Positions 2,795-45,859 of a DNA stretch of 64,000 nt are shown here, one piece after another. Source of the DNA: Massalongia carnosa (Eukaryota). The notes beneath the pieces are model-generated. The model was given only the letters and a program-made list of their open reading frames with translations. It had not been told where the DNA came from and searched no databases. How positions within the stretch are numbered: position 1 is the first letter of the stretch; each line of letters starts with the position of its first letter. The position numbers and the translations under genes were made by a program. The stretch spans positions 3,658,001 through 3,722,000 of the forward strand of contig OZ287067.1 in the NCBI GenBank assembly GCA_965645245.1, given 5' to 3'.

Positions 2795-3134
2795 ATGATA
2801 ATCAGAAAAGCCAGCGAAACTACTCTCCGTGTCATTATCTATGGTGCTATTCGCTGTGGAGCTGTCATCCAAATCCTCGTTGTTATCATTGTCTCGGCAT
2901 CTCCCTTGAGGCGGAATTTCCTGATCACATCTGCGTCGATTGTGATCCGTACTTCTGCAGAAAGAATAGCGTTTCATGCAAAGATTTTTCTTCTTTTTCT
3001 CCCGCCTCTTCTTTTTGAGACGACCAGATTTTCGACGAATCAGAGGAGCAGGACAATCGGAGGAACAATGAAGATCTTCTATGCAAATAGGAGGCATAAA
3101 CGTCCCGTACGTGCCACGATACGTTTCCATCCTA
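2795..3134 (-). pseudogene. C-terminal fragment of a Mutator-like (MULE) transposase
   Basis: Y..FMPPI..EDL...GRLKKKRR...[14 protein letters not shown] parallels the C-terminal knuckle of the MULE at 23850-24040 (GRPKIRRE...CSICTSFKHNRRTC), followed by an acidic tail. Confidence 0.7.
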
Positions 3135-3188
3135 GAGATGACCCCCAAATGACCCCCAGGGAATATGGGGGGGTATTTGGGGGTCAAT
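3135..3188 (+). repeat. Self-palindromic putative MULE terminal repeat (GAGATGACCCCCAAAT...TATTTGGGGGTCAAT)
   Basis: Highly similar to 11418-11473, which lies upstream of the MULE ORF; internal hairpin arms TGACCCCCAAAT/ATTTGGGGGTCA. Confidence 0.65.
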
Positions 3189-4334
3189 TACCGTAACATA
3201 CACGTAATTTTGCTTCTGGCGCCGTCACGATGACCCCCAAGAACTGTAATTAATTGAACGGCAAATTACCTTAAGGACGGTTGGGGGTTTTCGGACATGG
3301 TAATGGAATGGTCTCAAGATCCCGGACATGTCTTCGCTAAAATGGGTACACCGGCAGGTTCCCGGTTTGAATGTTTTTTTGAGCGCTTTCCTGATTGAGA
3401 TGACTCAACATTGTCCTGCACGTGTAAGATAGCTTAAAATTCTGCTTGTGACTGATGAGAAATATCTGCGGATAATATAGAGTCTGAAATCATTTTGAAA
3501 ATATTATAGTCTTGAAAAGGATATATCTTAGTGAACATTCATATTGGTATGAACAGTGCTTGCAGTAAAAAAGCATCTGGCAATGATTTGGAGATTGTCT
3601 CAGTTTTGACAAGATCTCAAGACCTTCAAGATCGTGTTCCGGATAAAACGATCAGAAAACAATCTTATAAAAGAGATATCACGTTCATGCAACCTCGTTA
3701 CAGCTGAGTTGTATTCGGGTTCACATGATGTATTCGCCCAGTTGATGGTTAGAGAAACAAGTTATTGATTTAGTGACAGCTTCTAATCTACAGCTCTATG
3801 AATGCTATCATCCTCATGCCATGTTTCTCGTTCTCGTTGCTGTCTCGCACGATCTAGTCTTGAATCACTCCATCGAGTCCTTCCCGTACCTCCTCTCACA
3901 ACATGCATGAAACTAATGAAACAAGGCAGACAAGAGATGTGCCTTGAGGATCTGAAGAATAAGACTGTTAGCTTGAATTGCAATATGCACAGAGAACATA
4001 ACGTACCAAGTGCCTATGTAGAAGATAGGGTAGCCTAACGCAACAAATAAATTAGTCTCGGTCCTTTCATACAAGTTTGAATGCGAGAGATCAATCACCA
4101 AATTTATGATGGAGAGTGTCAGCAAAACTCAGCTGTTCTGACCTGACAAACCCTTCTCGCCTGAGGAGATTCCAGAGGAGACTTCTAAGACTGCCTTCTC
4201 GGGGGCGTCCTTCTCGGAGGCGTCCTTCTCGGAAACGGCCTTCTCCAATAAAGCCTGCTTTGGCATGACTCTAGGTTCTCTATCGTCTGTTAGCTGTAGT
4301 TGCATCATCATCGTCAGCAGAATGGGAATAACTC

Positions 4335-7300
4335 TTACAAAACTCCAGCAGCATTGAGTATGCTCAAACATTGCTTGACATGTTGTTCCTCCACCCTTAA
4401 TTTAGCTTTGATGGCATTCGACACTTTGCTTGGTAATTTATCGTAAGTGCCCTGAGGACTAATCCTCATATATTGCTGATCTTGACCGAACCGAGCATGA
4501 AAGAGCAGCCTCAACGCTCGATCAAGTACTTCGATGTCGTCCAATTCCTCGACAGTGTAGACTCTTGTCGGTGACAAGCTCAACAAGTATCGTAAGTTCA
4601 TTTCATCTTGATTGTATTGCTCCTGCTCGATGGAAGTTAGTTTGCTGTAATTTTGTCTCAACTTCTTGGTCGTTGTCATCTCCAAAACAGTATCTTTCAA
4701 GGCAGTTATCTCATCTCCGTCTCCATCACTTCAAAAAGCATCATCACTATCATCCGATATCACCTCGGATTCCTCGTCATCGTTCTCCTCTTCGTTCTCA
4801 CTGTCCTTAAATGACGAGTCTTCCTCAAATTGATCTGAAAATTCTTCGTCCACATCTTCATTCATGGATGCTTTGCCCTTCAACTTACGGCGTTTACCTT
4901 GACCATACTCTTGATAAACATCATCTTGCAGCATTGTATCCGCGAATATGTCAGGTCTCAGACGTTTTCGGGGTGTAGGATTCGTGACTGTATCGAGATC
5001 AAGATCCAATGGATCTTGCACCGTGATAGCTAATCTACCGCCGGTCTCCTCGTCAAACTCGACATTCATCGAGTTATTTGAATCCTCTGTGGGAAGAAAT
5101 TCTTTTCCTTCAGAATCTCGTGTCCTCTCTGACTCTCGTGTGCCTCTTTTACGTATTTGTTTGACTCATTTAACAAGTCAACTAGTAGGTTCTGCACCTC
5201 TGACGAGAAGGATCGAGTGGCTAAGTCCACCACGGCCTTGTCTGTTTGCTTTGAGTCTCGATATTGATCATGAGAATTCTTTATTACAACTCGAACAACC
5301 AACACGGGTTCGGTTTGAGAAATCTGCATGAAAATGCAACGATTAGACTTTCGTATCGGTACGAAGAAAGGTCACGCTCTTTTCAGATAACATACCCGGA
5401 TTATTCGAGATCAAGCTTGAATTTCTGACGGTGCATTGATTGCTGGCGTTGGCACTAAAACCCGACAACAACATCTATCCAGATTTACTCCTTGTGCCGA
5501 CACCTGATACATTATTATCAAAATCAGTAAAGAATCTTTAGGATCGCTGAATCTTTTAACAAGATTCACGCGCTCTAAATCCGTCAATCCAGCGTGTAAC
5601 ACTTCGGTCTCCACGTATGTAAAATTACACACGCTATCCCAGAAAAAGGCGTTGAGTGGTACATCTTCTGTAATCAATAGCTTCCGTGGCTTGTCCGTAA
5701 CGATATGAGGTAATACATAAGTATGAATTTGATATAGTATGGACTTCATGGTAGGAGAACCGTAGGTCAGAAATTTGAGTTTTTCCGAACCAGTAGTAAC
5801 ATCAGAGTCTCCTTCTCGTTTCACAAGATTAATGATATGATGAGCAGTCACGCCTTTTGCTCGAAATCGGTTGATATCGTTGACCAAGGTGTTATGGCCT
5901 ATTTTTCGAAGCATGCGGTCGAGTCTACTGAGAAGAAGGGAGGCACTGGCGAGAGTTAAATGTCGTAATGGTGCTATGATGTGTGGAAATTATCGGCTCC
6001 AGCTTTCTTGATAGCTGTAATTTGTGGCTTCTCCGTCTTCTTGCCCTTCCAATCTTTTATGGCTTGAACAAATTCCCTGCATCCATAAATTAGCTTTTAT
6101 CTGCTTCTCAGATTCATATCGATATGAAGAATAAGCTAACCGAGCGTGAGCTCTATGTACCCATTGGGACTCCTCTGCTTCTTCTTCTTGATAAGTGAGC
6201 TCAACGGTTCTAACTTCGTGGCTTGGGATCATGGAGCGCATAGAAACAGTTTCATAATCATTGATCTTCAGGATGGAGGCAGTGGAGCGGCGAATCATTA
6301 TCAGCTCGTCCATGTAGTGATAATGTTTTGCAATAAGCTGCACATCTTGAGGGAGCAACAAAGCTTCGATTCTGTATGACAGTTAATAAATGATGAAAAA
6401 GAGGTCGAGATTCGATTGTGCATGCCTCTTAGGATCCATGACGATACGTCGTTTAGAGTCCGTTTCGGACAACGACTGAATCGCTTCAAGCTATGATAGG
6501 ACTCCGCCGCGTGCTGCATCAGCCATTCGAAGTCGGATTCATCAATATGTCTTGTTTTACCCATGGCCATAAGATTAATAAAGGTCCGAGTATGTCCTAA
6601 CAGACTCGTTAGAGATCATCAGCCCTTTTCATATCAATATGAAAACATTACCAATTAATCGTTGATGACGGGTGTAGCGGTCAAAAACCAGTGTACCTCA
6701 GCCTCGAGCTGCTTGATACTGGCAAAGATCTTGGTGCCAGGATGTCGCAATTTGTGGCCCTCATCTAAAAGAACTGGTCCAAATACTCCTGTCCATTTAG
6801 AATTAAAGGTTTTCTTTTCTCTTCCACTTTTGCTCAATTTCGTATGTACAGAAAGAGTTCTGCTCGCAAAAGTATCGTAAGATGAAAGTATTACGACCTG
6901 TGAAGCGGTTGGATTGCTTTGATCAAAAATATACCGCAAATGCGGAGGCGAATTCGTCAGCTTTCTGGGAGCTTCACGTATTGCTGTTGCTGAAACCCAA
7001 TTGATAGCAAATTTAGCGTTAATGGGTCTGTCTCCATGTGCGATTATTAGTGTAATGGTTGAGAACTGTATAATTTCTTCTTGCCATTGATGCAAGACAA
7101 TTCCACTCGGAGCAATGCAGAGTGCCGGTCGATGCGCAGCTATGATGTTCACGTCTCTCTCTGTCATGCATCGCGCGTAATACGCCAGAAAAAATAATGC
7201 TGTATAGGTTTTTCCAAACCCCATTGTGTCAACAACTATTCCACTAAATGTTTGAATACTCTCTAGTTTTTTTGCTGCCTTGGCCAGTTCGGGATCATTG

Positions 7301-8160
7301 ACGCGTCCCGAGTCGATAGGTATTCTCCCACATGATCGCTGTAGCATGAAATCTGCTCCATTTATCTGACTGTCAAGAAAGGAGACTTTGCAGTCTCCGA
7401 TGAGGGTACAAACACTTCTGTCAAGCAACTGTGCTTGACCGTGCTTCGAAATGAACTTCATGCCGAGTATTATCTTGCAGATAGCAATAGGTGGACCGGT
7501 CTGTGATGCGCTGCCTGTAAAGGCGTTTTGAATGTCGAAATATCGGTTGAGATCATGAACGGAATCGGGCTTTTCAAGACATGTTAGAGACAACTTCAAA
7601 CTGATATGAGATTGAATAAATACCTCAGCTGAGAGAAGCGCGGTCTCGCTATCAGTTTGAGCTTGTTGTAGCTCTTCTCGCACCTTTTATTAAGCTTCAA
7701 GATACTATTATCCTTTAAAGCCTTCGGCATCTGACCGCAGACTTTGTCCAGTACATGATGTTGCCAGCGTAGCAGACCTTCTTCGGTAAAAACATCAAAG
7801 TTTTCATGATATAGAAGCATTTCCGAGCGTTGCGTTGAGTCAAAATATGACTGCGGAATGGATTTTTTTTCGAGCAATCGTGGATCCATCAGACAAAAAT
7901 TGCCGCAGTTTATTGTGCAAAGACGGCGAATAGGATCCTTCCATTAAGCTAGGGTCCATGTTTTCCGTGTCATTTTGCATTGGCATACTGTCCTCGAGCG
8001 CTTGTGAAGTTTGTGACATCTTCTCGAAAGCTTCATCAATAGATCGAGTGCTCACTGGATCGATCACAGATCTCACAGCTACATCGTTGTCTTCCGTCAC
8101 CTGAATGTCTTTCAGAATTTCCAAGAGTGGTCCGTCATGCTCATAGATTCTACTTATCAA
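4335..8160 (-). pseudogene. SNF2/SWI2-family SF2 helicase-like ATPase, fragmented by frameshifts, stops and probable introns
   Basis: Walker A DTMGFGKT, LCIAPSGIVLHQWQEEI, DEGH box, FLTATPVIN (6655-7683); helicase-C motifs ER..LV.RF and SAQGVNL (5411-5914); flanking co-directional fragments 7596-8160 and 4335-5329 assigned by position only. Confidence 0.85.
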
Positions 8161-8248
8161 AGGACGAACCCTGACAAGAGTTTGACCTAGGGTCAGAGAT
8201 CGCGATCTTTGATCACGTCCAAAAAATATGACCTGTCCGCAGTGACCA

Positions 8249-9310
8249 TCATGAATAATCCATATTTATCATTGCCACAGCGATACTGCACAATGTCAGA
8301 GGGAAAATAGGGGATGAATCGGGAAATCTCGCAAAATCAGTGGAACATGTGCGAATAGAAGAACCCCAACTGTTTGAGTGCCAGTATTCCGAAGGACTAT
8401 CAACGATCTCTGCCATACCGATATGAATGTTTCGTTGAGTCGTGGCTGAAAGTAAGATACTGATGACAGTTCGAGTATCAAAGTAATAGACGTTCGCTTG
8501 AGCCGGTCTTGGTGTTCCGGTGGGTTGTTTTTCTCGTCGTACTGATATCGCTGCCTTCTGAATGGATGGAAGGGGAAGGCGCTTACGGCACCAGGAGTGC
8601 AAAGTTGATAGTCGCTTTGGCAAATTTCGCACTTCATGAATGTCTAACAGTTGCAAAACTTCGAGCAGGCCATCATAGGTGCGTCGCTTGATGCCTTCTT
8701 TATCACACCAGAGACCAAGAGCCAAGCAGAAATCCGATATTTCTCCTCGTACTGGGCGGGAGGGCACCCGGATATCATCATCAATCGTGCTTTCAGAAGC
8801 AGAAGGGGCAAACTCGTTGAAAGATTCAGCGGTGTCTGTGCTTTCTATATCAAATTCCGCGAGTTGATTGGATGATAATGTCATGATAGCATTTGAAGAT
8901 ATTAAGCCGACAGCAAAGGCCGATGTATCAGGGATTGAAGTAGGTCGAGTATTAACCTTTTGAAACTCTTCATCAGTTTCCCGCTCATAATCACTATTTT
9001 GATCGAATGCCGTCTCTATATCGGCTGGGAAATTGTCTTGAACGTGTTGTTCAGGAATTTTATTAGACGATGATTGAATTTTATCGAGATTCTCTATGGT
9101 TCTCTTCTTATGCGTCATTGCTATTGGTTCTGAGCTCTGAGTCTGCTTTTGCTCCTCGTGAATATGTGCAGAATTGTGTTGATATGAAGAACCGGCTTGC
9201 ATAGACTCATGATCGGGGAAGTCTATCGGTTGACTTTTGAAAGGCTGTGGGTTGGCCTGTGGGACACTGCTTTGAACAGTGGATGCTGAAACAATCAATG
9301 CCTTTTCCAC
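8249..9310 (-). pseudogene. N-terminal part of a putative (CMC/EnSpm- or Plavaka-like) fungal transposase, truncated before any catalytic core
   Basis: Motif string FCLALGLWC..GI.R..Y..LLEVL..LP..L.TL..LPL..YYFD..HIGMAEIVD.PSEYWHS..W.SSIRT..PIFP resembles, from memory, a fungal transposase-like family; lies inside TIRs; superfamily assignment is inference. Confidence 0.45.
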
Positions 9311-10224
9311 AAGAGGAGGACCCTGGAAACTTAAGGCGGTTTATTCAGACTGATATGAAGAAGGCTTACTGCTGAGATGATTGAAGTAGTGTCAATGGTT
9401 TAGGCTTTCTTCTCTTCCTCAAAACATGACCTTCATCGATCATCATATTCTCCGTCACATCATCCTGAAATACATGACGAGGCATCGTGTCTTATGACTG
9501 AGTTCAATTCTGTGCGCAGGTGAGGTATTCTCATGAAGAACTGCTGGTGCGTTGATATTTTAGTTCTTAGGGCTTTAGCACACTGTTTCAGAACATTACC
9601 ATTCTTCAGGCTTTCTTCCGATTGCACTATCGTTCATGCTGATATCACAAATACAATCATGAAATCTCATCCTCAAATGAAGAAGTCCTTGAACCTATGA
9701 CACAATCCGAGATAGAATCAGGGCCAATAGCGGCAGAAATATCAACAAAAAAGAGGCGGAGAAGACACGTCATTACGTCAGAATGGAAAATAATAGCGAT
9801 GCGGTAATCCGCGGGCTCCATCGTGTCAGCTGAACATATATAATTTCTATCTATGTTTGGGCAACTCTCCCCTCGCTGCTGCCCTGCTGGCGCTCAGTTT
9901 TGCTGAGGGCCCCTCCTATAATGGCTTTGTTTTGGCAGCAGTGAGGGGAAAAACTCCATCTACCTATGCGGCTGACTTAGGGAGTGGGTGGGTGGGCAAA
10001 AGACCTTTTGGTGCTGAACTCCGAATCAATGGTGATGATGAGGAGAAGAGTGCCAAAAGGCCATCTATTTATGCCCTTTCTTTCCCCTCCTTGTCCAACT
10101 ATTTGGACATCATCCTCCTTCGGCCTTCGTTGGCTATCCACGGCCTGCCTCCACTCGGTCCCGTCATTACCTTTCGCCCTAGCCGAATTACTATTGGAGG
10201 CTGCTTTGCGGCCATTTGCGCTTC

Positions 10225-10965
10225 GTTATGGCAAGTTGGACGCAGATCAGATAGCGCATATCGCACGTACTGCAATTAAGGAAAATGTGGATGACGAAGA
10301 TATATATTTCAGGAAAGGACTCACCAAAGCGCAGTCCAACGTTCAACGTGGAAACATCGCTCTCTGACCTGTATGGAAGTATGTAGCTTGCTATTAGCGT
10401 TTATACTCGACTTCTGAATTTTGTTAGGACTATGTGAAGTCTGCGATGAGGAGAGACAACCTAGGGCTGCTGCAATCCGAGCATGACTCGAGCAGATTAT
10501 TCAAAGCTTTTGCACAGAAATACGATCCTCACGATGCTGAAACTGTTTTTCCATGGGCTGCAAAAGATTTGATGTTTCATGAGTCTTCAAAAAAGGGCGT
10601 AATGCCTCGAGGACCCTATTGGATTAAAGGTACGTGACAAGGCATGGGAGAACTGATGATATTAACATACTGATATGAAACAAGTGTTTTTTCTTAATTT
10701 AGCGGTGAAGACCAAGTTGTTCTTGGATGCCCCCAGAGCAGAAGGGACAGATCGAACCTCCCTGCTAGAGTTCTATGATACGTTTCCCCAAATGGCGAAA
10801 TACCAAAACATCAAGCCACACCATTTCAAATTGAAACCAGCTCGGACAAAATGTCTGAGAAAGGAATCATCAGACAAACCAGAGACGAAGGAATTTGGTA
10901 CCATCATGGATGAGACGGAGGTCACCGAGGCCGAGAACGAAGACGAGGATCAGTTTAGCTCGTGA
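10225..10965 (+). CDS. Intron-containing ORF remnant of unknown function, divergent from the helicase/transposase; start uncertain
   Basis: Consecutive + ORF pieces separated by GTATGG..TTAG (~10371-10427) and GTACGT..AG (from ~10630) intron-like segments; acidic C-terminus. Confidence 0.45.
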
Positions 10966-11817
10966 ACGCTTTGCTTTTTTTGTACTGGTATGAAGAAAAG
11001 ATGTTTTGCTTGAAGTTGTTGGTGCAATCCTATTTAGCTTCTCATAGCTTGACCGAAGAAAATGTTTTGCTTGCACTTGGCTCTAACACAAACTGAAACT
11101 TGAAATCTTGTCAACCAAGTATCACACTGTTTCAAAGCACTCCTGATTCAAAAGAATCTTGAGCTAATCTGATGAAATTCTTCAAACGAAGATCGTCCTG
11201 AGATGATGTTGTTAGAAACATGCATTCCACGTCATAAGATATCTTACATATAACAAAGTCACGAGATTGTCTTGAAAACAAAATATCTGAACACTATTTG
11301 CTTCTTGACTGACGTAATCACTATATAGATAGACTAAGACAAGAACGTTCTAGTGGATTATATCTTGAGACCATCTCAAGACCATGTCCGAATACCCCCA
11401 ACCGCCCTTAAGGTACTGAGATGACCCCCAAATAACCCCCCCATCTTGCCTGGGGGTTATTTGGGGGTCAATCATAGGTAAAGTGACTGAACCTACCAAT
11501 TACAGCTCTATAACTTTCTGCTTTAAGTGCTATAGGCCAATGAAACTCCATAGAATGCTTAAACAAGGCATTTGGACTACGTGGCACTCGGGCTATCTAG
11601 CATTAACTCGGGACTTATTTGTGCATACCTTCGTCCATCATTTCTGCATACTTATGTCTCGTTCAATCTCACTATGGCCGAATCAACAATGTCGCTTTAT
11701 GTCGGTCAAGAGTGGGACGATAAATATGAGACAAGACAGGCGATCACTAATTGGCTTGCAAGCAAGGGCGAGTCATGGCGTGTTGAGAAGGCCGAGAAGA
11801 ATAGATATCTAGTTAAG

Positions 11818-12847
11818 TGTAATACGGATGGCGCTAGAGGGATACGTGCTCGCCTATGGCGGTTGCGGGATTAACTAGCGTGGACCATGCCGTAGTACGA
11901 AGTCGCATAAGCCGTCGAGGCTGACACACTGCCATCTTACCCCGAAACTTCGGAGTTATTGTTATCACGTTCTTGACTACTTACAGATCAAACACCTGTC
12001 GAGGCCGTGGTGGTAGATTGCCATGGAGTGTAAGGCGGACTCCTGTGGAGACGCCAAGGAACTCTATATGGGATCTACTGGCCTACTCGGAGCTACTGGA
12101 TCTCTTGATGGTTCAAGAGAGGTAGCAGGAGGCACGGCTCGCTGGACGCAGCTTGAGCTAGGCTCCCCGGTGTAAACTTCAGCTTCAACCTTTATTACTA
12201 CGTTGGTAGTGATGTCGGCTGAATGAACCTACATGACCTCGTTGTCTAGACCTTGTGTCTAGAGGCAGGTCCGCAGTGTAGCGAGGTATTCAGTCGGAGG
12301 TAACCTTCCATCACTAGGTAGTGGTGACGGCGAAATGAAGCTACATAGCCTGAGGCATGTAGTGAGGGATCTAGCCGGGGGTAGAATTGTTCTACCTTGC
12401 AAGGGAAGGTCTAGAAGGCTGCTCGAGGCTGACTAGATGATCCAGCGAACGCCGAGTTCGTGGATGGATCCTGAGGGATGGTTGGATGTAATGCGATAAA
12501 GTCGGATGTGGATTGCAAGGCTGTAATGCTCGCAAGACTCCCAAGGCTTGCAAGGCTCCTAAGGTTCCAAGGCTCCCAAGGCTATAGGCTTGGGGTGAGT
12601 AGGATAAATATCAGAACGAATCTTGTAGTATTCGTTAGCAATTAGTCTTTATTCTATGAACAACCTACGTTTGGGTCTCGAACGAGATCTCTTGGTCCAA
12701 GCACTTCCACATCCATTAGTTCTTTGGATCACATATACTCTCGGAGACTAGCACGTAGTAGCTATCTTCCTCCTCTCACACTGAGCATTTCCCCTTTCGA
12801 GATCAGTGTCGCTCGTGATAAGCTTACTGGTCTCGTAGCCCATTACA
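11818..12847. mobile_element. Solo LTR, 1030-bp family, copy 1
   Basis: TGTAAT...ATTACA termini, 5-bp TSD TTAAG; near-identical copies at 44427, 45860, 59080. Confidence 0.93.
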
Positions 12848-13312
12848 TTAAGTGCGATCATTGTGACTTTCGAATCAGAGCCAGCTTGTCCAACAGAACT
12901 GGGAGATGTAATACTTAAGTGTATAAGAGCTAAGACAAAGAAAGACTGACATTAGATCAGGGAAACTCACTAAAATGATCCCTCATACTGAAGAGGGGTA
13001 GTCGTGGGTGGTGCATACGTAATAACCTCAAGGAGAGAAGACCGGCAGAAAGCAAACAAGGAACACACGTGAAAACAACAAACAGAACGTTGGCGGTGAC
13101 GACTCGGCCACTCTGACACTGTCACTCGGACACGAATACTGACTCTGAAGGAAAGAAAAATGTTGATTGCCTGTCTGTCTAGAGGGTGAAACTTCCCCTA
13201 CCTATAGAAAAATGGGCGCCTCAGCCCCGGAAAAACCTCCCCTCCGCTCCGTCCACACCAATCCCCCCCCTCTCCCCTCAGCACCTGCCCTTGTCCCTAT
13301 TCACCCTATCAC

Positions 13313-21523: not shown

Positions 21524-22582
21524 ATCAGCTCACTGTAAGACTTGTCGTATACTGTACCCAATTGCTCCAAGGAATGAGGCACTAAACTGGGGGGGTAAGA
21601 AACACAAGGAAAATTTGGGGATCTCGATTTTCTAATAACAGAACGATGAACTTTTTTCGAATTTTCATTTCTGCTCACTCTCTGAATTTTCTGTCTTTTT
21701 GTTGCGTCTCTTCTTTACGCGGCCGAAAGGCTCAGTCTTATAGTACTCTCGGAACAATGGCTCCATCTCTCGGACCTCTTGGAGATATTTTCCGCCGAGC
21801 CATAACAGCATGAAATCGGGAACTTGTAGCGAAATAGTAACCATTTTTCGTTAGTCGAGACGCGCCGTCGCATAGGCCGCTGCCACCAGTATTGAGGTTT
21901 TTCGGGATTCGCCACTCGCTAAAACCCGACGAAGCTTCCAAAAAGGGTAAAGTATGGCTTGCGTCGTCCCGCGGATTGCTTCTTAGACTTCCAATTGGTC
22001 TTCTTTCAGCTCACCGCCTTCGGTCTAGAACATCAAGGTCGAACTCGATCCCACTATCAAACAAAGAAATAAGAAACACTCTGAAGGTTAGTTCACGATC
22101 CGTGCCCCGCCCCTTTTGAACTCTTGGCTTTTTCAGGGTCAAACGCGTTCCCACTCTCTTTTTCTCTTTTCGTTCGAATCTGCACTCGTTGGTCTCTCTG
22201 GACTCTTGCTTTTACCGAATAGCCTCAAAAGGTCATCGCACCGTGGTCGCCAATGAAGAGGGGTAGTCGTGGATGGTGCATAAGTGATGACCTCAAGGAG
22301 AGAAGACCGGCAGAAAGCAAACAAGGAACACACGTGAAAACAACAAACAGAACGTTGGCGGTGACGACTCGGCCACTCTGACACTGTCACTCGGACACGA
22401 ATACTGACTCTGAAGGAAAGAAAAATGTTGATTGCCTGTCTGTCTAGAGGGTGAAACTTCCCATATCTATAGAAAAATGGGCGCCTCAGCCCCGGAAAAA
22501 CCTCCCCTCCGCTCCGTCCACACCAATCCCCCCCCCCTCCCCTCAGCACCTGCCCTTGTCCCTATTCACCCTATCACAATAC

Positions 22583-24390
22583 CTGTGCCATATCGAACCA
22601 CTCCGGCCATTCAGGTAGCAATGCTGTTCAGTATTTAGCCACCAACAAGACAAATCAAGCGCTTGTGCAATCTGATCATCGGGTTAAATCGAGGCATTTA
22701 ATGACCGTCGAGACTTCCAGTCGAGGAAACAATACAAACTATATGGCGATGTGGCGCACAAAAGAGTTTCTCAAGATTAAACGGTTTGGCAATATTAAGC
22801 AAAGCTTTCAATATATACCTGCATTCTTATCAGCATGCGAAGAACAAAACAATACACGAACAGCATGGAAAAATCTGGAGCTAGATGAGAATGGTTGTTT
22901 CAAACGATGTTGGGTACTGCCAAAGGCGACTGAGCGTGCTTTTCGTCATTGTCGTTCGGTGCTTCAGGGTGATGGTACCGCTTGCAAGACATCGGACGGC
23001 CTTGTGATCTTATCTCTTGTTACTCAAGACGGTAATAACCAGGTATTGGAACTGGCGTGGGCATTGGTCCCAATCGAGAACAAAGATAACTGGATCTATT
23101 TTTTACGGGCAATGGCATTATATATTCAATTTCGCTCGGGACGACAAGCGGTGATTATTAGTGATCGCAACAAAGGTATCAAACATGCAGTAACTGATCA
23201 TTTTCCTGTCGCTTCAAGTGCTCATTGTTGCAAACATCTCGGAGACAATGTCGATAAAAATGGAAGAAGACATATCGGAATCTTTTCTGGGATGCGGCCA
23301 AAGCTAAAACACAGGCAAAATTCAACACTATACTCAACAGAATTAGAGCGACGAGACCTAATTGCGCAGGTTATATTGAAGACATACCTCCAGAGCAGTG
23401 GGCTGTATATGCTTTTCCTCGTCCTCGATATGGTCAATTATGTTCTAATGCTCAAGATTCGCAAAATAATATTTGGCTGGAGGCACGTCACATGCCCGCA
23501 TTGCTTTGTCTCCATCAGATTTGGAACCAATACATGGACAAACTTTATGAACGGCACAAGCTTGAACACAAGACAGATAGAGTCACTGATTATGCCTGGA
23601 GATGGATTCAAGATGGACGGAAACAATCGGCCGAGTATACTGTTCAAAATTCTCGTCCTTTCTGCGGTATCGTCACTACTGGTACTGGAAGTCATCACAT
23701 CGTGGATCTGGAAGCCAAGACGTGTACTTGTCATGATTTTCAGGATTATGAGATGCCATGTGATCATGCCGTTGCGTTATGTATGAAGTAAGAAAGAGAA
23801 CCAGAGGATTTTGTCAGTCCCATCTTTACAATCGCTGAGTACAGTACAAGGCAGCATACCAGTCATTTTTACATCCTATTGATCTCAATGTTCTCGCAGC
23901 GGCCGATGTGAAACCACCAGAATTTGTAGTCCAGGCTGGTCGCCCAAAAATCAGACGTGAGAGAAGAAAACGATTTGATTTATCAAAGCAGAGAATGAGG
24001 TGCTCAATCTGCACGAGTTTCAAGCATAACAGGCGTACATGTGATCACTCGGGACCTTCCGCAAGTGACGTTTCAAAACTGCCTTCTGTCTCTCAATCTA
24101 GTCACAACGAAGATGAAGTTGATAAAGAGAATGACAATGACTCTAATGACAATAATAGCGACAGCAATCATGACGGCGAGAGCGACAATATGAGTGTTCA
24201 TACTGACATAAGTGACTGGAATAGATTCAGTGATCGTTCTTTTGTTTTTAGGTCTCGCAGATTCTCGGCTCAAAACGATGAAGATATTGCGACCGAGACT
24301 GACAAGAGTTTTACATCTTATCGCGACAAAAGTATTACACTCGAGAGTGAGATGGATCCTCATCTCGATCTCAATCGTCGCCAATTGTAA
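22583..24390 (+). pseudogene. MULE transposase core (DDE, SWIM finger, CCHC knuckle), frameshifted; N-terminal exons at 11674-11817 and 12853-12988
   Basis: LQGDGT, LAWALVPIENKDNW, IISDRNKGI, HCCKH, SWIM CTCHDFQDYEMPCDHAVA, CSIC....HNRRTC. Confidence 0.92.
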
Positions 24391-24609: not shown

Positions 24610-27600
24610 TATTGTAATTGAAGCTCTGCTGGCATAGTAAAAAGCTCACTTTTGAAACGATTGATATTTCTATCTACCTATCTAAGGACCGTGTTTATAT
24701 AGATAGAAAAACATGCCGAAAACCGTTCTTCCTCACCTTCCTGCTTCCTAGAAATCTAAGATTGGTGATTGACTCATATCCAATTTATGACTCGATGGGA
24801 ATGTTCATAGAAGTTTTGCGGTGCTTCTCGAGGTCGTTATGTGTTGCCTAATGTTCTTACCAACGCACTAATCCCAATGCGGTACTATGTGACTCTGAAC
24901 ACTTTACTAGGCATCAGCCGGGTGACTTTGCACATTACAACACTCCCACTGCAAAGTTGCCAGGTGAGTAATAATATCCTAAACGCCGGTTTCCAATCTG
25001 ATTTTGTGTGGCCTATGTGGTCAATTTAGGTGGCCTTATGATGAAGCGTCCTCCATCTTCCTATGCCTCTCTTAGGCCTAATTTCTCGCGCAACTTTCGA
25101 AAGATAGGTGCCGCCAGTGGTTTAGTGAAGATATCTGCCACCATATCGTGAGTGGATACGTACTGTATAGTGGCATAGTTGTCTTCAACGACCTCCCGAA
25201 GATAATGAAGCTGAATATCCATATGTTTGGACCGACTATGGTGCTCAGGGTTTTTTATCAAATCGAGCGTACCCTGGTTGTCGCCATTTAGGATAATTGG
25301 TAGGTTCATATCTTTGGAGAAGTTCAACTCTCCGAACCATCTAGTTGCCCACACTATATCTTTTGAAGCCTGGCACATGGAAGAATACTCTGCTTCCATG
25401 GTGGATGTGACGACTGACCGTTGCCTCTTACTGGCCCATATAACTGCCCCGTTTCCTAGCATCAGAACGTGGCCATATGATGATTTTCTATCATGGTTAT
25501 CACCATACGCTGCATCAGCATAACTAGTGGGTCCGGTGTCATTGGGTTCGTAGGTAAGTGCCAAATTCGTGGTCCCATTCAGATATTTCATGAGATGGTC
25601 TACCGCGTTTTGGTACCTAATTGCTGGATCGTGCGTATATTGACTAAGCTTTCCAACTGCTTGGGCAATGTCTGGTCGCGTGTTGATCATCAAAAACATC
25701 AAACTCCCTATCCGTTCTTGATATTCTAATTGGTTTGTCCTAGGTTCGTTGACGATGGCAGGACTGCATGCAGCATAGTTGATCATAGGGGTAAGGACTG
25801 AATTTGCTTTATCCATCTTATATTTCTGCAGGAAGCTGCGAATGTAAGATGATTGGTCAATCATTATTTTGTCTTTCTCGCGACGTATGCGAATCCCTAA
25901 GATGAACTTTGCTGGCCCTAAGTCTTTCATATTATATTCCTTTATTAGTAGACTTTTGAGCTCCTTTATGGCTGTCATGCTTTTGGAAAATATCAGAAAA
26001 TCATCAACATAAAGGCTAATGATAACGTGGGTAGTGTGATTAACGAACACACAATTGTCTCCTGAGAGCGCTTTGAAACCAATGGATGTTAGATAATTGG
26101 TTATCTTTTTATTCCATCCTCGGCCAGATTGTTTGAGACCATAGAGTCCTTTCAGAACGCGCAACACATGGTTCGTCAGATGTGGGGGAAGCACCAAGCC
26201 TTGGGGAGGCTCCATATAGATTTCGTCATCTAGGGAGCTTTGCAAGTATGCGTTTGGTGCGTCCATTTGCTCAATATAGAAGTTATATTTACATGCGAAA
26301 TATAGGAGCATTCGTAAGGATTCATACCTTAGGGTGGGTGAAAACGTGTCCCCATAGTCTGTCCCGGGGATTTGTTTGAAGCCCCTTGCTACTAATCGTG
26401 CTTTATAGCGGTCAACATGGTTAGTAGGGGTGTATTTCACTTTGAAGACCCATCTAGCGGTGATGATGTTCTTATCTGCTGGTCTTTCAACATATTTCCA
26501 TGTATTATTGGCGGCGAGAGCATTTAATTCGTCTTGAATAGCAATTTTCCATTTGCCTGATTATATGACTGCGGCTCGTACACTTTGGATGGTTGTTTTG
26601 CTATATTTGCCCGGTCCCGGTCCTTTTTGTTTCCATAAGAGTTATCGAATTCGTATCGGTTATACACATCTTTCCTGCGGTTGGAACGTCTGGTAGGTGA
26701 TGAAGAAGGGGTCCTATTTGTCTCCTGAGTTTGGTTGTTTTGGTGCTGGGCACCTGCATCATCTTGGTGCAGATTATCCTGAGCACCTGCATCATCATCC
26801 TGATGCTGAATACCATCGCCCTGGTGCTGATCACCATTAGTAGGTACTCCCACTTGATCAGTAGTAGGGTGGTTGGTTGGTGGTGAAGATTCATTGTCAT
26901 CGGAAGAGTCATCGTCATTTAGGACGACGGACGGGGATGATAGGCCTTTTGTAAGTAAGGATCCCCCCGGTCTTTTTTCATCAAACTTTATTGAAGTCTG
27001 AATTTCCACCTTTTTTGTTTCCACATTGTATAACCTATATTGATTGCTTGAATGATATCCGGTGAATATTGCCTGATATGACACATTATCTAGTTTGGAG
27101 CGTTTTTCCTTTGGGACATGCACAAAAGAGACGCATCCGAACGTACGAAGAGTGTTGATGTTAGGTCTTAGCCCGGTCCAAGACTCATTAGGCGACGTGG
27201 TGTTGGTGGTAGGTAAGAAGTTTCTGAGGTGGTTTGCTGCTACTGCTGCTTCCCCCCAGAAAGATTGTGGCAATTTGGCCCATACCAACATAGACCTTAC
27301 CATTTGAACAATGGTTCTATTGAATCTTTCGGCGACACCGTTCTGCTGGGGCGTGTATGCGGTGGTTGGCTCCATACGAATTCCTAATGGCTGAAGTTGC
27401 TCTGCGAGATATTTATACTCTTTGGCATTATCAGCACGAAAGCGAATGATTTTGAGCCCCTTTTCCAACTCGACCATTGCCTTCCAGTCTTTTATGATGC
27501 GGTATATGTCTGCCCTACTTTTCATACAGAAGAGCCAAGATTTTCGGGTATAGTCGTCTATCAAAGAAACGAAATAGGTATGCCCACCTAAACTGGCCTT

Positions 27601-29781
27601 CTTATATGGACCCCAAACGTCAGTATGTATTCTATCGAGTGGTCTATTTGCCTTCGAGAAAGGAATTTTGCTGATTGTACGGGTCATCTTAGTTAAATTG
27701 CAAATTTGGCACGGTAGGTCCAGAATTGCCTTTGAAAATTTCTTCCCTGTTGCTTGTTGAAGTCGTATATCATTGGGGTGCCCCAATCGTGTGTGCCATA
27801 ACCAATATTGGGCCTCATTGGTGGCCTCATTGGTGGTCTCTTTGGGTGCTCCCACTGGATCGCTATCGATGCAGTCAGGGGTAATAGGAGGAGGAGTTTT
27901 GGGTAGAATTTCGCCGGAGGAAAGCGAGGTCAGATATGTGGTTGATTTAAGGTTTGCCGGTGGTTCGGGGCCATCTAAATCATCATTTTCATCATGGGCT
28001 TCGAGGGCCACATGAGATGTGTGGAGGAAGTACGCCCGTCCCCTAAGAATTCCGGTAGCGACCAAAGTACCATCCCTGAAAATCTCGACACCTCTCCGGT
28101 TAAATGAAACGTTCAAACCCTTCCGATTAAGGGCTGCAATTGATAGCAAGTTGACGTCTAGTTCAGGCACGAATAGAACGTTTGTCATCCGGATATTTTT
28201 CCCATCGATATTGGTGCAAATCGTACCTACTCCTACGGAGAAGAGTTTTTCGCCGTTTGCAATTCTAATGGTGGTCCGGTATGGCTTGATTTGGGTAAAG
28301 ATCGATTTGTTGTATGTCATATGCCTGGAGGCTCCTGAGTCGATTACCCATCCAGGTGAGTGTTGATCATCTTGCGCCATCCACGCACTATTCTCACTAT
28401 CACTATTCGATTCATCCTTTGCTGCTCGTGCTGCCCCCCTTCCTCTCGGTTTGTTTTTGGACTGCTTGTTATCACTCTTTGGTTTTCGGTTATTTTCTGG
28501 TCTAGGTTTCACCTCATTAGGGTGTTCTTTGACCCATTTTTTACCTTCATCTGTGTTGTCCTGCCAGTCCCAGCAATCATTGCTATTATGCCTCTTTGGG
28601 CAATGTGAGCATTTGGGGATTGCCTTACCCTTGTTAATGGCCTTATTGGCCGTCTCGGTCTCTTGCCCATCTTTTAGTCGTTGCTCCACCCGTTTTAGGC
28701 TTTCCAGAGTCTTTTCTAATGTGGGATCACCAAGGTCTTCAAGGATGAACTTCGCGGTGTCATAAGCTGGGTCCTTAATGGCGTTCATGAGGGTCATGGC
28801 CACAGACAGATCTGATGGCTGTTCTGAAGTCTTTATATCTGCGATTTCCATCGCAAGGTTCTGCAATTCATTGGCGACCTCATCGATGGGTTGATCGACT
28901 GACATTTCATATGTATAGAATTTTCTGTGAAGCACAAATATTCTGCTTTTGGCTTTGACTCCATGGACGTTCCTCAATGCTGCCCAAACATCCTTTGCGG
29001 TCTCCTTGTTCCTAACAGTGACATATTGAGACTTTTCTATATTGCCCCTGATCCAGAGCTGTGCCTGAGTGTCATCAGTAAACCATTCCTCATAGTCTTT
29101 TGGATGGGTGACAGGGTCTGGAGAAGAAATGGCCCCGTTTACTATCCTCCACATCCTTTTCGATTTGAGAAGAAGTTGCATGTCATCGGCCCAGGTCAGA
29201 TAGTTGTTGGACCCAAGCTTCGGCTCTACTTTATAGTCTCCTTTTCGAATGGCTTTTGAATATGATCCATCAGGGGTTGTGCCCTCTTTCGCGGGAGCTG
29301 CGGAATCGCTCTCTTTTCCAGACATGGTCCAATAATAGGAGAACTGATGGATGGAACGAAGAGAAGTATGGCTTCGTAACTTTGAAAAACAACAGAATAG
29401 ATAGATTAATTTATGCGGAAGAAAAAATTGCTTTCCGGGCTCATAACCTATTGTAATTGAAGCTCTGCTGGCATAGTAAAAAGCTCACTTTTGAAACGAT
29501 TGATATTTCTATCTACCTATCTAAGGACCGTGTTTATATAGATAGAAAAACATGCCGAAAACCGTTCTTCCTCACCTTCCTGCTTCCTAGAAATCTAAGA
29601 TTGGTGATTGACTCATATCCAATTTATGACTCGATGGGAATGTTCATAGAAGTTTTGCGGTGCTTCTCGAGGTCGTTATGTGTTGCCTAATGTTCTTACC
29701 AACGCACTAATCCCAATGCGGTACTATGTGACTCTGAACACTTTACTAGGCATCAGCCGGGTGACTTTGCACATTACAACA
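24610..29781 (-). mobile_element. Full-length Ty1/Copia element (Copia-1) with TG..TA LTRs
   Basis: 333-bp LTRs 24610-24942 and 29449-29781, no difference seen; TSD ACAGG; PBS GGTTATGAGCCC; PPT AGTGGGAG. Confidence 0.96.
25061..29325 (-). pseudogene. Copia-1 gag-pol polyprotein, single frameshift at ~26554
   Basis: CSHC..H..C knuckle, WVIDSGAS protease, WHTRLGH..CQIC, HTDVWGP/ADNAKE/GVAER integrase, YVDD RT, ADIFTKPL RNase H. Confidence 0.95.
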
Positions 29782-44092: not shown

Positions 44093-44426
44093 GCCATCTC
44101 GTACTTCGCCACTACTCCATAAACTTCTCGCTCTTCTCGGCCACATATGCGTAGCATCTGGTGCGTTTGCCCACAACTCGAAGATCGTATATCTCTGAAT
44201 CCATCATCTGCGAGCTGCTCATTATTGCGAATAACGAGGATTGTATATATAGGAATGTATATAAAGGATGTAGCTGTAGGAATGTAGCTGTAGGAATATA
44301 ACTTTATTGCCTAGATTATGTTGCGATAAAGCATTAATAACTACGTTTACGTTCTAAAAACTCATTCAAATCCAACGCATGCATACATATTCAACCCAAA
44401 CTAGCCAAACCAACCTAGTCATACTG

Positions 44427-45456: not shown

Positions 45457-45859
45457 TACTGAACCTAACCATACCCAACCTTACATAGTTGCCACGCGCG
45501 ACTACTGATAACGTAATTCACTAGTCAACGGGACAAACCGCTCAACGGGACTAACTAAATTTCGCTTAATTCTTGAAGCCTTGTTGAAATAGGTGTATGA
45601 CTATGGCTATATGGCTATGTAATAATAAAGGTATGTATGACCGTGATGTTAAGGATGAAGAGTTGCTAGGCAGCAATCTTTTCCTATTACTGGTCACCCC
45701 ATTCTAAGCGAGGTGATCTTATCTTATCTTGGGACTAAGCCTAATGCGGCATCTACGGTTTCCGTAGATGATATGTCCATCTAGAGCAGCCGTAGGTGCT
45801 ATGTTCATCGTACTGATAGGTGTTCATTGTGCTGGTAGGAATTGGATATTCAACACCCC

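Follow-up and report, generated by a model that had tools for sequence, protein, structure and literature searches.

A probable Enton-like transposon remnant combining a SNF2-family ATPase with a RAG1-like transposase family in Massalongia carnosa

Can a cut-and-paste transposon carry its own chromatin remodeller? This question is raised by a locus in Massalongia carnosa, studied here within a window of 64,000 nucleotides (contig OZ287067.1, positions 3,658,001 to 3,722,000). The initial annotation had described terminal inverted repeats (TIRs) enclosing a SNF2-type ATPase, an unclassified transposase and a divergent third gene. The favored reading, with a probability of roughly 60%, is that positions 3269-11413 (8,145 bp; Table 1) are a non-autonomous copy, internally deleted and carrying mutations, of an Enton-like cut-and-paste transposon with several genes, from a fungus that probably forms lichens. 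Such an element would be of a rare and poorly documented kind, with its own SNF2 chromatin-remodelling motor beside a RAG1-like transposase.

Table 1. Coordinates of the element, its genes and its immediate flanks in the window.
Feature	Position	Strand	Remarks
Mutator-type transposase last-exon fragment (..GR.KKKR.. CCHC knuckle), flank	2912..3121	-	tblastn 35% identity, E 4e-8, to 23845-24057
Left flank, outside element	3139..3266	.	48-nt palindrome 3139-3186 and 80-nt spacer with one further GATGACCCCCAA motif; read as end region of a Mutator-like element
TA at left end, candidate target-site duplication	3267..3268	.	Identical TA at 11414-11415; lone TA in 22-nt empty-site-like string
Left TIR	3269..3320	+	52 nt, starts CCTTAAGG; matched to right arm
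SNF2-family ATPase pseudogene, 5'-truncated	4335..8146	-	Lacks about the first 380-500 codons; Pfam SNF2-rel_dom E 4.4e-19
Deletion/fusion junction	8146..8148	-	Transposase codon ~385 (..RPLISR) in frame with SNF2 interior (YEHDGPLL..)
Transposase gene remnant	8148..9310	-	Keeps the N-terminal ~385 codons out of ~1150-1190; frameshifts at two sites, near 8300 and 8259
Third gene, divergent from transposase gene	9784..10965	+	At least two putative introns; broken by 389-bp insertion and 1-nt deletion near 10341
MITE-like high-copy insertion, foreign to element	9804..10192	.	389 bp; joint 9803->10193 in X1 (2 contigs), X3 (1) and X5 (1)
Right TIR	11362..11413	-	52 nt; matched to left arm
TA at right end	11414..11415	.	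Read from sequence
Right flank, outside element	11416..11470	.	CTGAGA linker and 48-nt palindrome 11422-11470, inverted relative to left palindrome
Mutator-type transposase gene start (MuDR DNA-binding domain), flank	11674..12920	+	Pfam DBD_Tnp_Mut, E 7.2e-7 (29.2 bits; cut-off 25)

The inverted repeat is real and not a product of chance. A search of the 64-kb window returned arms at 3267-3320 and 11362-11415 (54 nt, 89%), and self-BLASTN recovered them at E 1.8e-11. Aligned arm against arm, 48 of 54 positions are identical, TA included (the repeat measures 52 nt without it); this alignment contains the 46-bp TIRs first reported, with the same 40/46 identities over 3275-3320. A 20-mer from the arm occurs exactly twice in 64 kb (0.01 expected), and the space between the arms is filled by the element's genes. 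The repeat extends past the ends first proposed, continuing outward as GATGACCCCCAA palindromes of 48 nt (3139-3186 and 11422-11470, 45/48 identical), after a spacer of 6 nt on the right and 80 nt on the left.

Inside the arms, every motif quoted in the initial annotation was located: DTMGFGKT, DEGH and LTATP in ORF 6655-7686(-), GVNL in ORF 5411-5989(-), and EYWHS..W.SSIRT..PIFP in ORF 8249-9340(-). Pfam confirmed the SNF2-related domain. The ATPase gene is interrupted by four in-frame stops (6385, 5992, 5413 and 5374), by several frame changes and, following TATPVIND (about 6597-6660), probably by one or more introns. In tblastn of full-length SNF2 homologues, residues 378-867 of P0046 aligned to 8142-6661 and residues 2039-2155 of P0050 to 4694-4344. 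The co-directional transposase and helicase ORFs are both present, but as a fusion at 8146-8148 and not as two intact genes. Contigs of run X1 split both ways at this junction: one set continues into KNVDEYSV of the transposase, and in the other the SNF2 sequence is preceded by its N-terminal motif EHEDFD. The fusion, the truncation of both genes, the four stops and the frameshifts bear out the proposal of an internally deleted, decayed copy.

The transposase ORF matches residues 21-383 of proteins of 1153-1191 aa, with no match beyond. It retains a helical domain and, at about 8420-8148, roughly the N-terminal two thirds of a BAH-like domain, and it lacks the catalytic core. The core was characterized in homologues. 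All ten that span it have the order FIDxFG (D), ~84 aa, LGDMxQQ (D), CRxC, GR[YF]H and DPxHSE (E), and five of the ten have the H(3)H form. This D-D-C(2)C-His-E order is the CMCT layout as described in passages of PMC12730594. An AF2 model of the homologue P0012 (pLDDT 69, pTM 0.60) matched RAG1 core chains at Z 9.0-9.5 (312-325 residues aligned, rmsd about 7 A) and BAH domains at Z 9.5-10.7 (120-135 aligned). For a model of P0002, an 89% paralogue, a search that did not use Foldseek placed BAH domains in all of its first 15 rows (Z 6.8-9.3); both models are of moderate confidence. Among 18 family members, one gave a weak Pfam Plavaka match below the cut-off and 17 gave none. Judged by motifs and models, the family belongs to the EnSpm/Mirage/Chapaev/Transib-like (CMCT) group, unassigned in Pfam and with a RAG1-like core, and a BAH-like chromatin-reader domain is predicted ahead of the RNase H core. 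The unclassified protein at 8249-9310 can now be described as the N-terminus of a DDE transposase, and structure prediction on the homologue P0012 returned the RNase H-fold, RAG1-like DDE core (Z 9-9.5) that had been sought.

Is the ATPase part of the element, or an ordinary host gene or one-off capture that was hit by a transposon fragment and later fused to it by deletion, with no role in transposition? The fusion shows that the locus was rearranged. No SNF2 gene was found near any of four more distant transposase relatives with usable flanks (L005, L007, L009 and L010), and runs X3 and X5 cover 6411-7212 at about single-contig depth, although depth is not copy number. However, both families are repetitive. 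The transposase family was confirmed as multi-copy, with 16 ORF fragments on 11 contigs at identities of at least ~83%, and 459 relatives of the SNF2 piece were returned at E <= 1e-3, in many cases as short fragments. The window's own chromosome-size contig also carries paralogues of both, P0068 for SNF2 (91%) and P0023 for the transposase (84%). On another contig, of 3.63 Mb, P0021 (98-99% identical) reads over the same transposase/SNF2 junction, whereas the 87% paralogues P0024 and P0026 read on into the catalytic core (FIDDFGLYRN/LGDMKQQQ). At 56-65% identity to the one in the window, SNF2 fragments P0045, P0195 and P0085 lie on contigs of 10,339, 25,045 and 10,404 bp, and transposases P0035, P0013 and P0034/36/37 lie on contigs equal to these in size and source; co-occurrence on the three contigs is read from these equal sizes and sources, not from coordinates. 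The transposase of this lineage is only 41% identical to the window's. Because the two genes co-occur on three contigs of so distant a lineage, the helicase is, judged by these matching lengths, a lineage trait and not the one-off capture that had been named as a refutation. The missing SNF2 N-terminus is found neither beyond the transposase remnant nor anywhere else in the window by tblastn of full-length homologues, the SNF2 family is remote from all solved host subfamilies (best RAD5, E 1.7e-13), and Entons are reported to carry a SNF2 helicase (in the passages of PMC3627910). A host gene or chance capture is most improbable.

Whether the repeat belongs to the SNF2/transposase unit is less certain. 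Mutator-type gene pieces and inverted palindromes lie directly outside the arms, and the repeat could therefore be owned by Mutator-like elements (MULEs): two copies of one family, or one rearranged copy, head to head. In each copy, arm and palindrome would then make up the 5' TIR, with the transposase gene next to it; of the left copy only the last exon would survive, and the 8 kb between would be a fragment of a SNF2 transposon that has lost its own ends or whose ends go unrecognised. An ORF with a MuDR DNA-binding domain does begin 204 nt outside the right palindrome, and on the opposite strand, 17 nt beyond the left one, there is a C-terminal MULE fragment. Both point away from the element, as expected of two head-to-head Mutator ends. 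The right-side repeat totals 109 nt, a typical length for a MULE TIR. Weak similarity continues ~10 nt past the palindromes, no target-site duplication occurs at their outer ends, and the termini are not CA..TG, the form given in the source passages. Against this, the arm motif turns up again in the two subterminal regions of the interior and not in the MULE flanks: the 11-mer ATCTCAAGACC of the right arm recurs in both, and the 10-mer TTGACAAGAT at 3606+ and 11105-. Inverted local alignment of these regions scored 29, matched by 5/400 shuffles and 0/400 real-sequence controls, with direct orientation scoring close to it at 28. GACCCCCAA is confined to the palindromes and spacer. For the MULE-domain copy at 22473-24387, the whole window contains no such TIR, and the C-terminus of that copy (23845-24057, downstream of the ORF with the Pfam MULE domain) shares only 35% identity with the left fragment. 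Two truncated MULEs would also be required symmetrically around a complete-looking gene set. Finally, one run X1 contig contains the 22-nt string CGGCAAAT-TA-CTGAGATGACCC, exactly the left flank, a single TA and the right flank, which breaks at the outer end of the arm; the sequence at hand covers the string alone, and the computed joins of this contig, at 11241 and 3174, count against it. This one read-derived string supports our reading of the sequence as an insertion of the element at TA within Mutator ends. Since TACCTTAAGGTA is itself palindromic, the TA may instead form part of the palindromic repeat end. In sum, the TIRs probably belong to the SNF2/transposase unit, and MULE ownership is unlikely but to be taken seriously.

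A Tc1/mariner/pogo-type transposase could also have moved the unit, with the EnSpm-like/SNF2 interior as passenger in a non-autonomous element. The window contains two pogo-like elements with TA-flanked TIRs of ~52-55 nt and DDE_1 transposases, and the ends studied here lack the CA/CAC start usual in CMCT elements. The arms are unlike the TIRs of those two elements (alignment scores 10-12), and their motif recurs in the element interior. CMCT elements with TA duplications do exist (ESTA), and capture of 8 kb would be unusual for a Tc1-type element. This origin is very unlikely.

Within the Enton-like reading, the autonomous form would encode a CMCT-group DDE transposase of ~1150-1190 aa, RAG1-like in its core and with a BAH-like domain inserted; downstream on that strand, a divergent SNF2-family ATPase of great length (at least 1500 aa); and at least one additional gene on the opposite strand. 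A single deletion may have removed the transposase past codon ~385, anything intervening and the first ~380-500 ATPase codons, leaving the in-frame fusion. At least two copies of the deleted form exist, so copying followed the deletion; full-length relatives still in the genome most likely mobilised it in trans. With ends of 52-nt inverted repeats flanked by TA, it would have landed at a TA where the motif-rich ends of Mutator-like elements lie, in a region crowded with dead transposons. The transposase would cut and join at the TIRs through RNase H-fold DDE chemistry, the BAH-like domain would tether it to nucleosomes or a histone mark, and the SNF2 motor would open chromatin-packed donor or target DNA. 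The earlier suggestion that the remodeller may help excision from or insertion into heterochromatin is strengthened by the predicted BAH-like reader in the transposase.

AcademH and KolobokH are helicase-bearing cut-and-paste elements of RecQ type. The present element resembles them as a DDE transposon with a superfamily-2 motor protein as second gene; the motor here is a SNF2-type dsDNA translocase, and the transposase superfamily differs. Passages of PMC3627910 mention a RecQ helicase for Academ and SNF2 helicases for Entons and Intons, and Entons are said to derive from En/Spm (passages of PMC3520738). The Inton/Enton lead was thus real. Enton was presented by Kapitonov at a 2012 meeting as a fungal element with several conserved proteins including a SNF2 helicase (as cited in PMC3520738 and PMC3627910), and is said to be in Repbase; whole-word searches for Enton and Inton in the searched texts returned one mention only. 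The transposase and SNF2 combination fits Enton, known almost only from that meeting report. Here an EnSpm/Transib-like transposase, a SNF2 ATPase and a third gene lie in one TIR-bounded unit, but the deleted copy has 3 genes, not 5-6, and its BAH-like domain has no counterpart in the passages on Entons.

The CMCT clade comprises EnSpm/CACTA, Mirage, Chapaev, Transib/RAG1, Plavaka, ESTA and Lanisha (Kojima 2025, PMC12730594, in part). The element shares with it the D, D, C(2)C, His motif, E order of its homologues and the RAG1-core fold match, with ESTA the 2-bp TA duplication, and with Plavaka the single sub-threshold Pfam match. In contrast, its 52-nt TIRs start CCTTAAGG and not CA/CAC/CATCA/TGT (ESTA consensus sequences start CACCAC), and it has a BAH-like domain before the RNase H core and a SNF2 partner gene. 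Chromo and PHD readers and SNF2_N remodellers have repeatedly been found within transposons or fused to them, and a role in steering insertion has been proposed (bioRxiv 10.1101/2021.11.30.470311, in part). As in chromodomain Gypsy elements and the fusions surveyed there, a chromatin reader or remodeller would have been recruited; unlike those, mostly single fusion genes, a BAH-like reader here lies inside a RAG1-like transposase with a separate SNF2 gene, an arrangement not described in the passages of that survey.

The third gene has no Pfam match, and its best Atlas score (0.87) lies under the 0.9 mark, with no known family. A head-to-head, intron-containing ORF had been proposed at 9797-10367; the divergent gene with putative introns stands, while the ORF as drawn is largely the 389-bp insertion. 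An extra T at 10341 occurs in every X3 and X5 contig there and in two X1 contigs, and in X5 the depth over bins 9619-10420 reaches about 6-14 times the level of adjacent bins. In the right flank, a 1032-bp solo LTR (11817-12848), copies of which were recovered by self-BLASTN, splits the Mutator gene and is skipped by one X1 contig.

An EnSpm-like fungal transposon that bears an SNF2 gene is present in the window as a decayed, non-autonomous copy, probably bounded at 3269-11413. Every sequence motif quoted in the initial annotation is present in the window. The minus-strand ORF at 8249-9340, which lies upstream of the SNF2 gene, has no Pfam match. A word-indexed search with it recovered 18 relatives, of which 10 are about as long and 8 are longer (684-1191 aa). 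The long homologues align to the window through their first ~350-385 residues only (9166 to about 8125), and no trace of their remaining ~800 residues was found within the window, leaving this copy without a catalytic core. No Pfam family was matched above threshold by any of the 18 family members. Plavaka (PF18759) was set aside, as it matched a single member below its cut-off (E 4.8e-5, 23.2 bits against 26.3) and the other 17 not at all. The homologues that span the core carry, in 10 of 10 cases and in this order, FIDxFG.YRN, a stretch of ~84 residues, LGDMxQQ, CRxC, GR[YF]H and DPxHSE; the H(3)H form HGRYH occurs in half of them (5/10). A D-D-C(2)C-H..H-E layout is described for EnSpm, Mirage, Chapaev, Transib/RAG1, Plavaka, ESTA and Lanisha, together the CMCT group (Kojima, 2025, PMC12730594). 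Judged by the motifs of its homologues, the transposase family has this layout and is of En/Spm type at clade level; the core itself is lost in the window copy. The ORF, initially annotated as an unclassified transposase, is identified by these full-length homologues with CMCT motifs as the N-terminus of a DDE transposase. A profile of the transposase had no match in collections of genome contigs and viral contigs. In metagenomes it found 15 distant loci, the four longest of which contain no inverted repeat bracketing the transposase. The three 90% clusters nearest to the window comprise 16 ORF fragments on 11 contigs of different sizes, from one or several assemblies.

The transposase remnant runs directly into the SNF2 gene. 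The initial annotation had drawn two co-directional genes; both sequences are present, as one fusion. On the minus strand the junction (8146-8148) reads ..CCT TTG ATA AGT AGA ATC TAT GAG CAT.. (RPLISR-I-YEHDG), in frame and with one base assigned to neither gene. In contigs of X1, one of the public sequencing runs that match stretches of the window, those matching from 8148 upward read KNVDEYSV below it, as the full-length transposase does at this point. X1 contigs matching from 8146 downward are preceded by EHEDFD, which completes the conserved ..EEDFxxEYxGPPL.. of the SNF2 N-terminal region. Since these contigs diverge to both genes at 8146/8148, a single event fused transposase codon ~385 to the SNF2 interior. 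The product of an ORF on a different, 3.63-Mb contig (P0021, 98-99% identical) crosses the same junction to 7843, so the deleted form is present at least twice. Two further products on other contigs (P0024 and P0026, 87% identical) go on into FIDDFGLYRN and LGDMKQQQ; full-length transposase genes therefore exist in the same set of assemblies.

The suggestion that this copy is internally deleted and decayed is borne out by the loss of the transposase core, the loss of the SNF2 start and four in-frame stops. The stops (6385, 5992, 5413 and 5374) lie inside conserved SNF2 alignments and are accompanied by several frame changes. Relative to the window, one extra base is found at 5096, 7684, 8259, 8300, 10341 and 11301 in every contig of run X3 and most contigs of run X5; X5 has none at 8259 and the extra base in part of the depth at 11301, and in X1 some contigs only carry these bases. 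Several of them would restore reading frames. These sites may be real frameshifts that reflect decay of the window copy, or homopolymer errors or indels of the assembly.

The SNF2 gene occupies 8142 to 4344 on the minus strand and lacks the first ~380-500 codons of its relatives. Its ORF at 6655-7686 matches Pfam SNF2-rel_dom (PF00176, E 4.4e-19). The C-lobe is aligned to homologues across 6481-5123, and its ORF has no Pfam match at E 0.01. By these alignments the ATPase of the element is a member of the SNF2 family with N-lobe and C-lobe. Of the 459 proteins that an exhaustive, profile-free search with the 343-aa ORF returned (E <= 1e-3), 65 reach E <= 1e-30; short fragments are common among them. 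Full-length relatives are ascomycete proteins of 1499-2330 aa with an SNF2 N-lobe, in 5 of 10 cases also Helicase_C, and long N- and C-terminal regions that match no family. Against the sequences of solved structures the best match was RAD5 (E 1.7e-13), followed by many subfamilies (1e-12 to 1e-4), which places the family apart from the well-known remodeller subfamilies. In one full-length relative (P0050, 2330 aa, from a Blastenia crenularia MAG), the shared N-terminal region is preceded by an OTT_1508-like deaminase domain (residues 321-391). Provided that the gene model is correct, this would be a nucleic-acid deaminase fused to the transposon-associated remodeller family. None of the runs listed as matching the stretch is recorded as RNA. 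Run X6, which has a different organism label, matches at 98% identity over 3364-6316 only, the 3' half of the SNF2 gene, and its contigs carry a 23-nt string at both ends, 3364 and 6316. We take this string to be a SMART-type cDNA amplification adaptor, in which case the contigs would represent a putative cDNA of ~2.95 kb, with its end some 45 nt inside the left arm.

Several observations connect the helicase to the element. In the window the SNF2 and transposase genes are adjacent and fused. The missing SNF2 N-terminus was found neither beyond the transposase remnant nor elsewhere in the window, which argues against a simple landing of the transposon in a host gene. Beyond the window, the best SNF2 relative (P0045, 65% identical) is on a JGI/IMG contig of 10,339 bp, the size of the contig of transposase P0035. 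Its cluster mate P0195 and transposase P0013 are each recorded on two NCBI contigs with a maximum length of 25,045 bp. A third SNF2 protein (P0085, 56%) is on a JGI/IMG contig of 10,404 bp, again the contig size of the transposase fragments P0034, P0036 and P0037. Co-occurrence on these three contigs is read from identical sources, contig counts and sizes, not from coordinates. On this basis the initial view that the helicase belongs to the element, rather than being a one-off capture, holds, with both genes on three contigs of a distant lineage. The transposase of that lineage (P0013/P0034-37) is only 41% identical to that of the window, so the linkage is old. In four distant metagenome loci with usable flanks (30-34% identical), neither an SNF2 gene nor a relative of the third gene was found. 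A tblastn match of window 7840-8265 to one of the metagenome loci (L004) was discarded as SNF2, as it falls in the transposase part of that ORF. The four loci speak against a linkage that is universal in the family; it is seen in the window and one other lineage only.

The inverted repeat reported in the initial annotation is real. Its arms (3267-3320 and 11362-11415) are identical at 48 of 54 positions (self-BLAST E 1.8e-11), and an arm 20-mer occurs exactly twice in the 64 kb against 0.01 expected. Scanning the genome contig collection with this 20-mer gave one chance match, in an Acidobacteriota MAG. The repeat does not end with the arms, as had been assumed. It resumes outward as 48-nt palindromes (3139-3186 and 11422-11470, 45/48 identical), which are mutually inverted, judged by their asymmetric loops; the spacer between arm and palindrome measures 80 nt at the left end and 6 nt at the right. 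This arrangement raises the alternative that the arms are the property of Mutator elements, as a pair of diverging Mutator pieces accompanied by inverted palindromes resembles MULE ends placed head to head. An ORF with a MuDR DNA-binding domain begins 204 nt outside the right palindrome (DBD_Tnp_Mut, E 7.2e-7, 29.2 bits, above cut-off). On the opposite strand, a last-exon part of a Mutator-type transposase lies 17 nt outside the left palindrome; this C-terminal fragment is recognised solely through its similarity to another copy, the MULE at 22473-24387 (35% identical to its C-terminus, E 4e-8). Pfam detected no MULE catalytic domain in either flank.

Other observations point to the arms as part of the interior unit. 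The motif GATGACCCCCAA occurs five times, confined to the palindromes and the left spacer, whereas the arm motif is repeated in the interior subterminal regions, with ATCTCAAGACC in the right arm and at 3612 and TTGACAAGAT at 3606(+), 11105(-) and no other site in the window. In inverted local alignment the subterminal regions score 29, which 5 of 400 shuffles but none of 400 real-sequence controls attain; in direct orientation, however, they score 28. A TA borders each arm, and this 2-bp flank is within the range of CMCT target site duplications (TSDs). One X1 contig contains 26 unaligned letters, the first 22 of which equal the left flank (3259-3266), one TA and the right flank (11416-11427). 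An unoccupied site would give this sequence, as would a break exactly at the right terminus. Unexpectedly, the two sides of the contig are placed at 11241 and 3174, and the right-side placement may be ambiguous within the palindrome. No TSD was found at the outer palindrome ends, or with CA- or CAC-type termini shifted up to ~20 nt outward. Taken together, we favor, with a probability of about two in three, that the 8,145-bp unit 3269-11413 was inserted at a TA into a motif-rich end region of Mutator elements, with the caveat that TACCTTAAGGTA at the ends is itself palindromic. Depth bins do not separate the two ownerships of the arms; depth is not copy number. X3 and X5 contig ends at 11367-11371 were considered as a repeat boundary and dropped as uninterpretable.

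The third gene has no Pfam family. With a 389-bp insertion removed, its ORF starts at 9784, divergent from the transposase gene across about 470 bp, has at least two GT..AG intervals and stops at 10965. An extra T at 10341, which would keep its frame, is present in every X3 and X5 contig there and in two X1 contigs. The initial annotation of a head-to-head, intron-containing ORF was right in that a divergent gene with putative introns exists; the ORF as drawn was largely the insertion. Contigs of X1, X3 and X5 lack the insertion at this site, and its depth in X5 is ~6-14 times that of neighbouring bins, so it is high-copy and apparently a recent mover. Gtr1/RagA clusters were rejected as relatives of the third gene; the best atlas score was 0.87, below the 0.9 mark, and was taken as chance.

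An RNase H-fold DDE core, for which the initial annotation had proposed a search, is present in the family according to a predicted model. The AlphaFold2 model of the homologue P0012, built from an 18-sequence alignment (pLDDT 69, pTM 0.60), resembles the core chains of RAG1 (VIA-align Z 9.0-9.5 over 312-325 aligned residues; Foldseek E about 5e-4). The rmsd is about 7 A, as is to be expected where several domains are matched together. Residues 220-398 match the BAH domains of ASI1, ORC1, polybromo, EBS, AIPP3 and Rsc2 (Z 9.5-10.7, 120-135 residues aligned, rmsd 3.4-4.3 A; best 135/159 residues). The model of its 89% paralogue P0002 was compared with 48,161 chains without Foldseek; the top 15 rows are all BAH (Z 6.8-9.3), and Tudor, chromo and PWWP barrels rank after them. 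Both models are of moderate confidence, and the Pfam BAH profile has no match in any family member. The family is thus predicted to carry a BAH-like domain in front of the RNase H-fold core. Among the papers listed by a literature search and judged by title and the opening of the abstract, none reports a transposase with a BAH domain. The recruitment of chromatin readers and SNF2_N remodellers by transposons is a known general theme (bioRxiv 10.1101/2021.11.30.470311).

The most likely mode of action follows from these predictions by inference. The window copy was probably mobilised in trans through its TIRs. The transposase would be anchored by its BAH-like domain to nucleosomes or a histone mark, and chromatin at the donor or target would be opened by the SNF2 motor. 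A more far-reaching reading is chromatin-guided cut-and-paste by a RAG1-like transposase with a BAH-type reader and a dedicated SNF2 motor, which would together allow the element to leave and enter silenced, nucleosome-dense repeats; the window copy itself probably lies inside the end of another transposon, in a transposon graveyard. This reading is in our estimate rather unlikely. If true, it would be the DNA-transposon counterpart of chromodomain-targeted retrotransposons, and a natural RAG1-like enzyme coupled to chromatin reading, comparable to the coupling of RAG1/RAG2 via the RAG2 PHD finger. It would also provide a handle on how DNA transposons deal with chromatin and a comparison for the chromatin coupling of V(D)J recombination.

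Among known classes, the element is best filed as Enton-type. Kapitonov reported fungal Entons and Intons, which according to PMC3627910 carry an SNF2 helicase, in agreement with the initial annotation. Like Entons, the element has a fungal host, an En/Spm-type transposase (at clade level) and an SNF2 gene within it. Entons have five to six conserved proteins; three genes are present in the window copy, from which the deletion may have removed others. The assignment is by gene combination, set against Entons by description alone; in the 8.4 million papers searched, Entons and Intons are named only in a meeting report and one later sentence, with no Enton sequence. The motif order is that of the CMCT group, most of whose elements have CA termini, unlike the CCTTAAGG that begins those here. 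ESTA elements share the TA flank and the RAG1-like fold, but the termini do not agree, as ESTA consensus sequences (Table S1, Data S1) start with CACCAC or CACGGC. A Tc1/mariner/pogo assignment would fit the TA and the TIR length, which resembles the ~55-nt TIRs of pogo-like elements in the window; it was rejected, as no DDE_1 or Tc1 transposase lies inside and the arms are unrelated in sequence to those TIRs.

An obscure class is confirmed and described more fully here; no new class is revealed. In the literature searched, the make-up of Entons is effectively undocumented, and this locus with its relatives gives a concrete, checkable family description. What is added is a RAG1-like transposase family that Pfam does not assign, with its catalytic motifs clearly recognisable and a BAH-like reader predicted, a conserved SNF2 partner gene and a nucleotide-resolved deletion derivative that was copied after its deletion. 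The predicted reader and the conserved partner make the family worth a proper description. Some of the long SNF2 genes and "hypothetical proteins" of ~1150 aa annotated in genomes of ascomycetes and lichens may belong to transposons and not to the host. The named homologues of the element's genes come from Lasallia, Pyrenodesmia, Coccidioides, Blastenia, Peltula, Pseudogymnoascus, Penicillium and Diplodia. All are ascomycetes, several of them lichen-forming, and one public run matching the stretch is labelled as a lichen metagenome.

The window as a whole is a fungal transposon graveyard. Pfam analysis of 40 further large ORFs identified two Ty3/gypsy polyproteins and copia, LINE-like, hAT, piggyBac-like, pogo/Tc1-like and Mutator-type pieces, and self-BLAST revealed nested LTRs, including four copies of one LTR (Table).

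Table. Coordinates of repeats and insertions in the window
Feature	Position	Remarks
Ty3/gypsy polyprotein (protease, RT, RNase H)	1-2794	truncated at the window's left end
MITE-like insertion (389 bp) in the third gene	9804-10192	short inverted ends GTAATCCG.. / ..CGAATTAC
1032-bp LTR, four copies	11817-12848, 44426-45457, 45860-46889, 59079-60109	98.6-99.3% identical
324-bp duplicated unit	12989-13312 and 22254-22577	97.8% identity
pogo/Tc1-like element	33319-43256	56-nt TIRs 33319-33374 / 43201-43256, TA-flanked; DDE_1 and HTH_Tnp_Tc3 ORFs

The integrase half and remainder of the left-hand gypsy element were not found within the window. Its polyprotein breaks at about 2787-2794 against the Mutator C-terminal fragment, and other X1 copies go on with ..FMTTKQLN. 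The first of the four LTR copies stands alone, as a solo LTR, and interrupts the MuDR DNA-binding-domain ORF; one X1 contig joins 11813 to 12849 without it. An inverted copia LTR, of which identical copies lie at 24610-24942 and 29449-29781, truncates the first copy of the 324-bp unit at 13313; the second copy leads into a MULE-domain ORF (22473-23783). Within the pogo/Tc1-like element lies a complete gypsy element that interrupts it and has LTRs of 487 bp (35964-36450 and 42158-42644).
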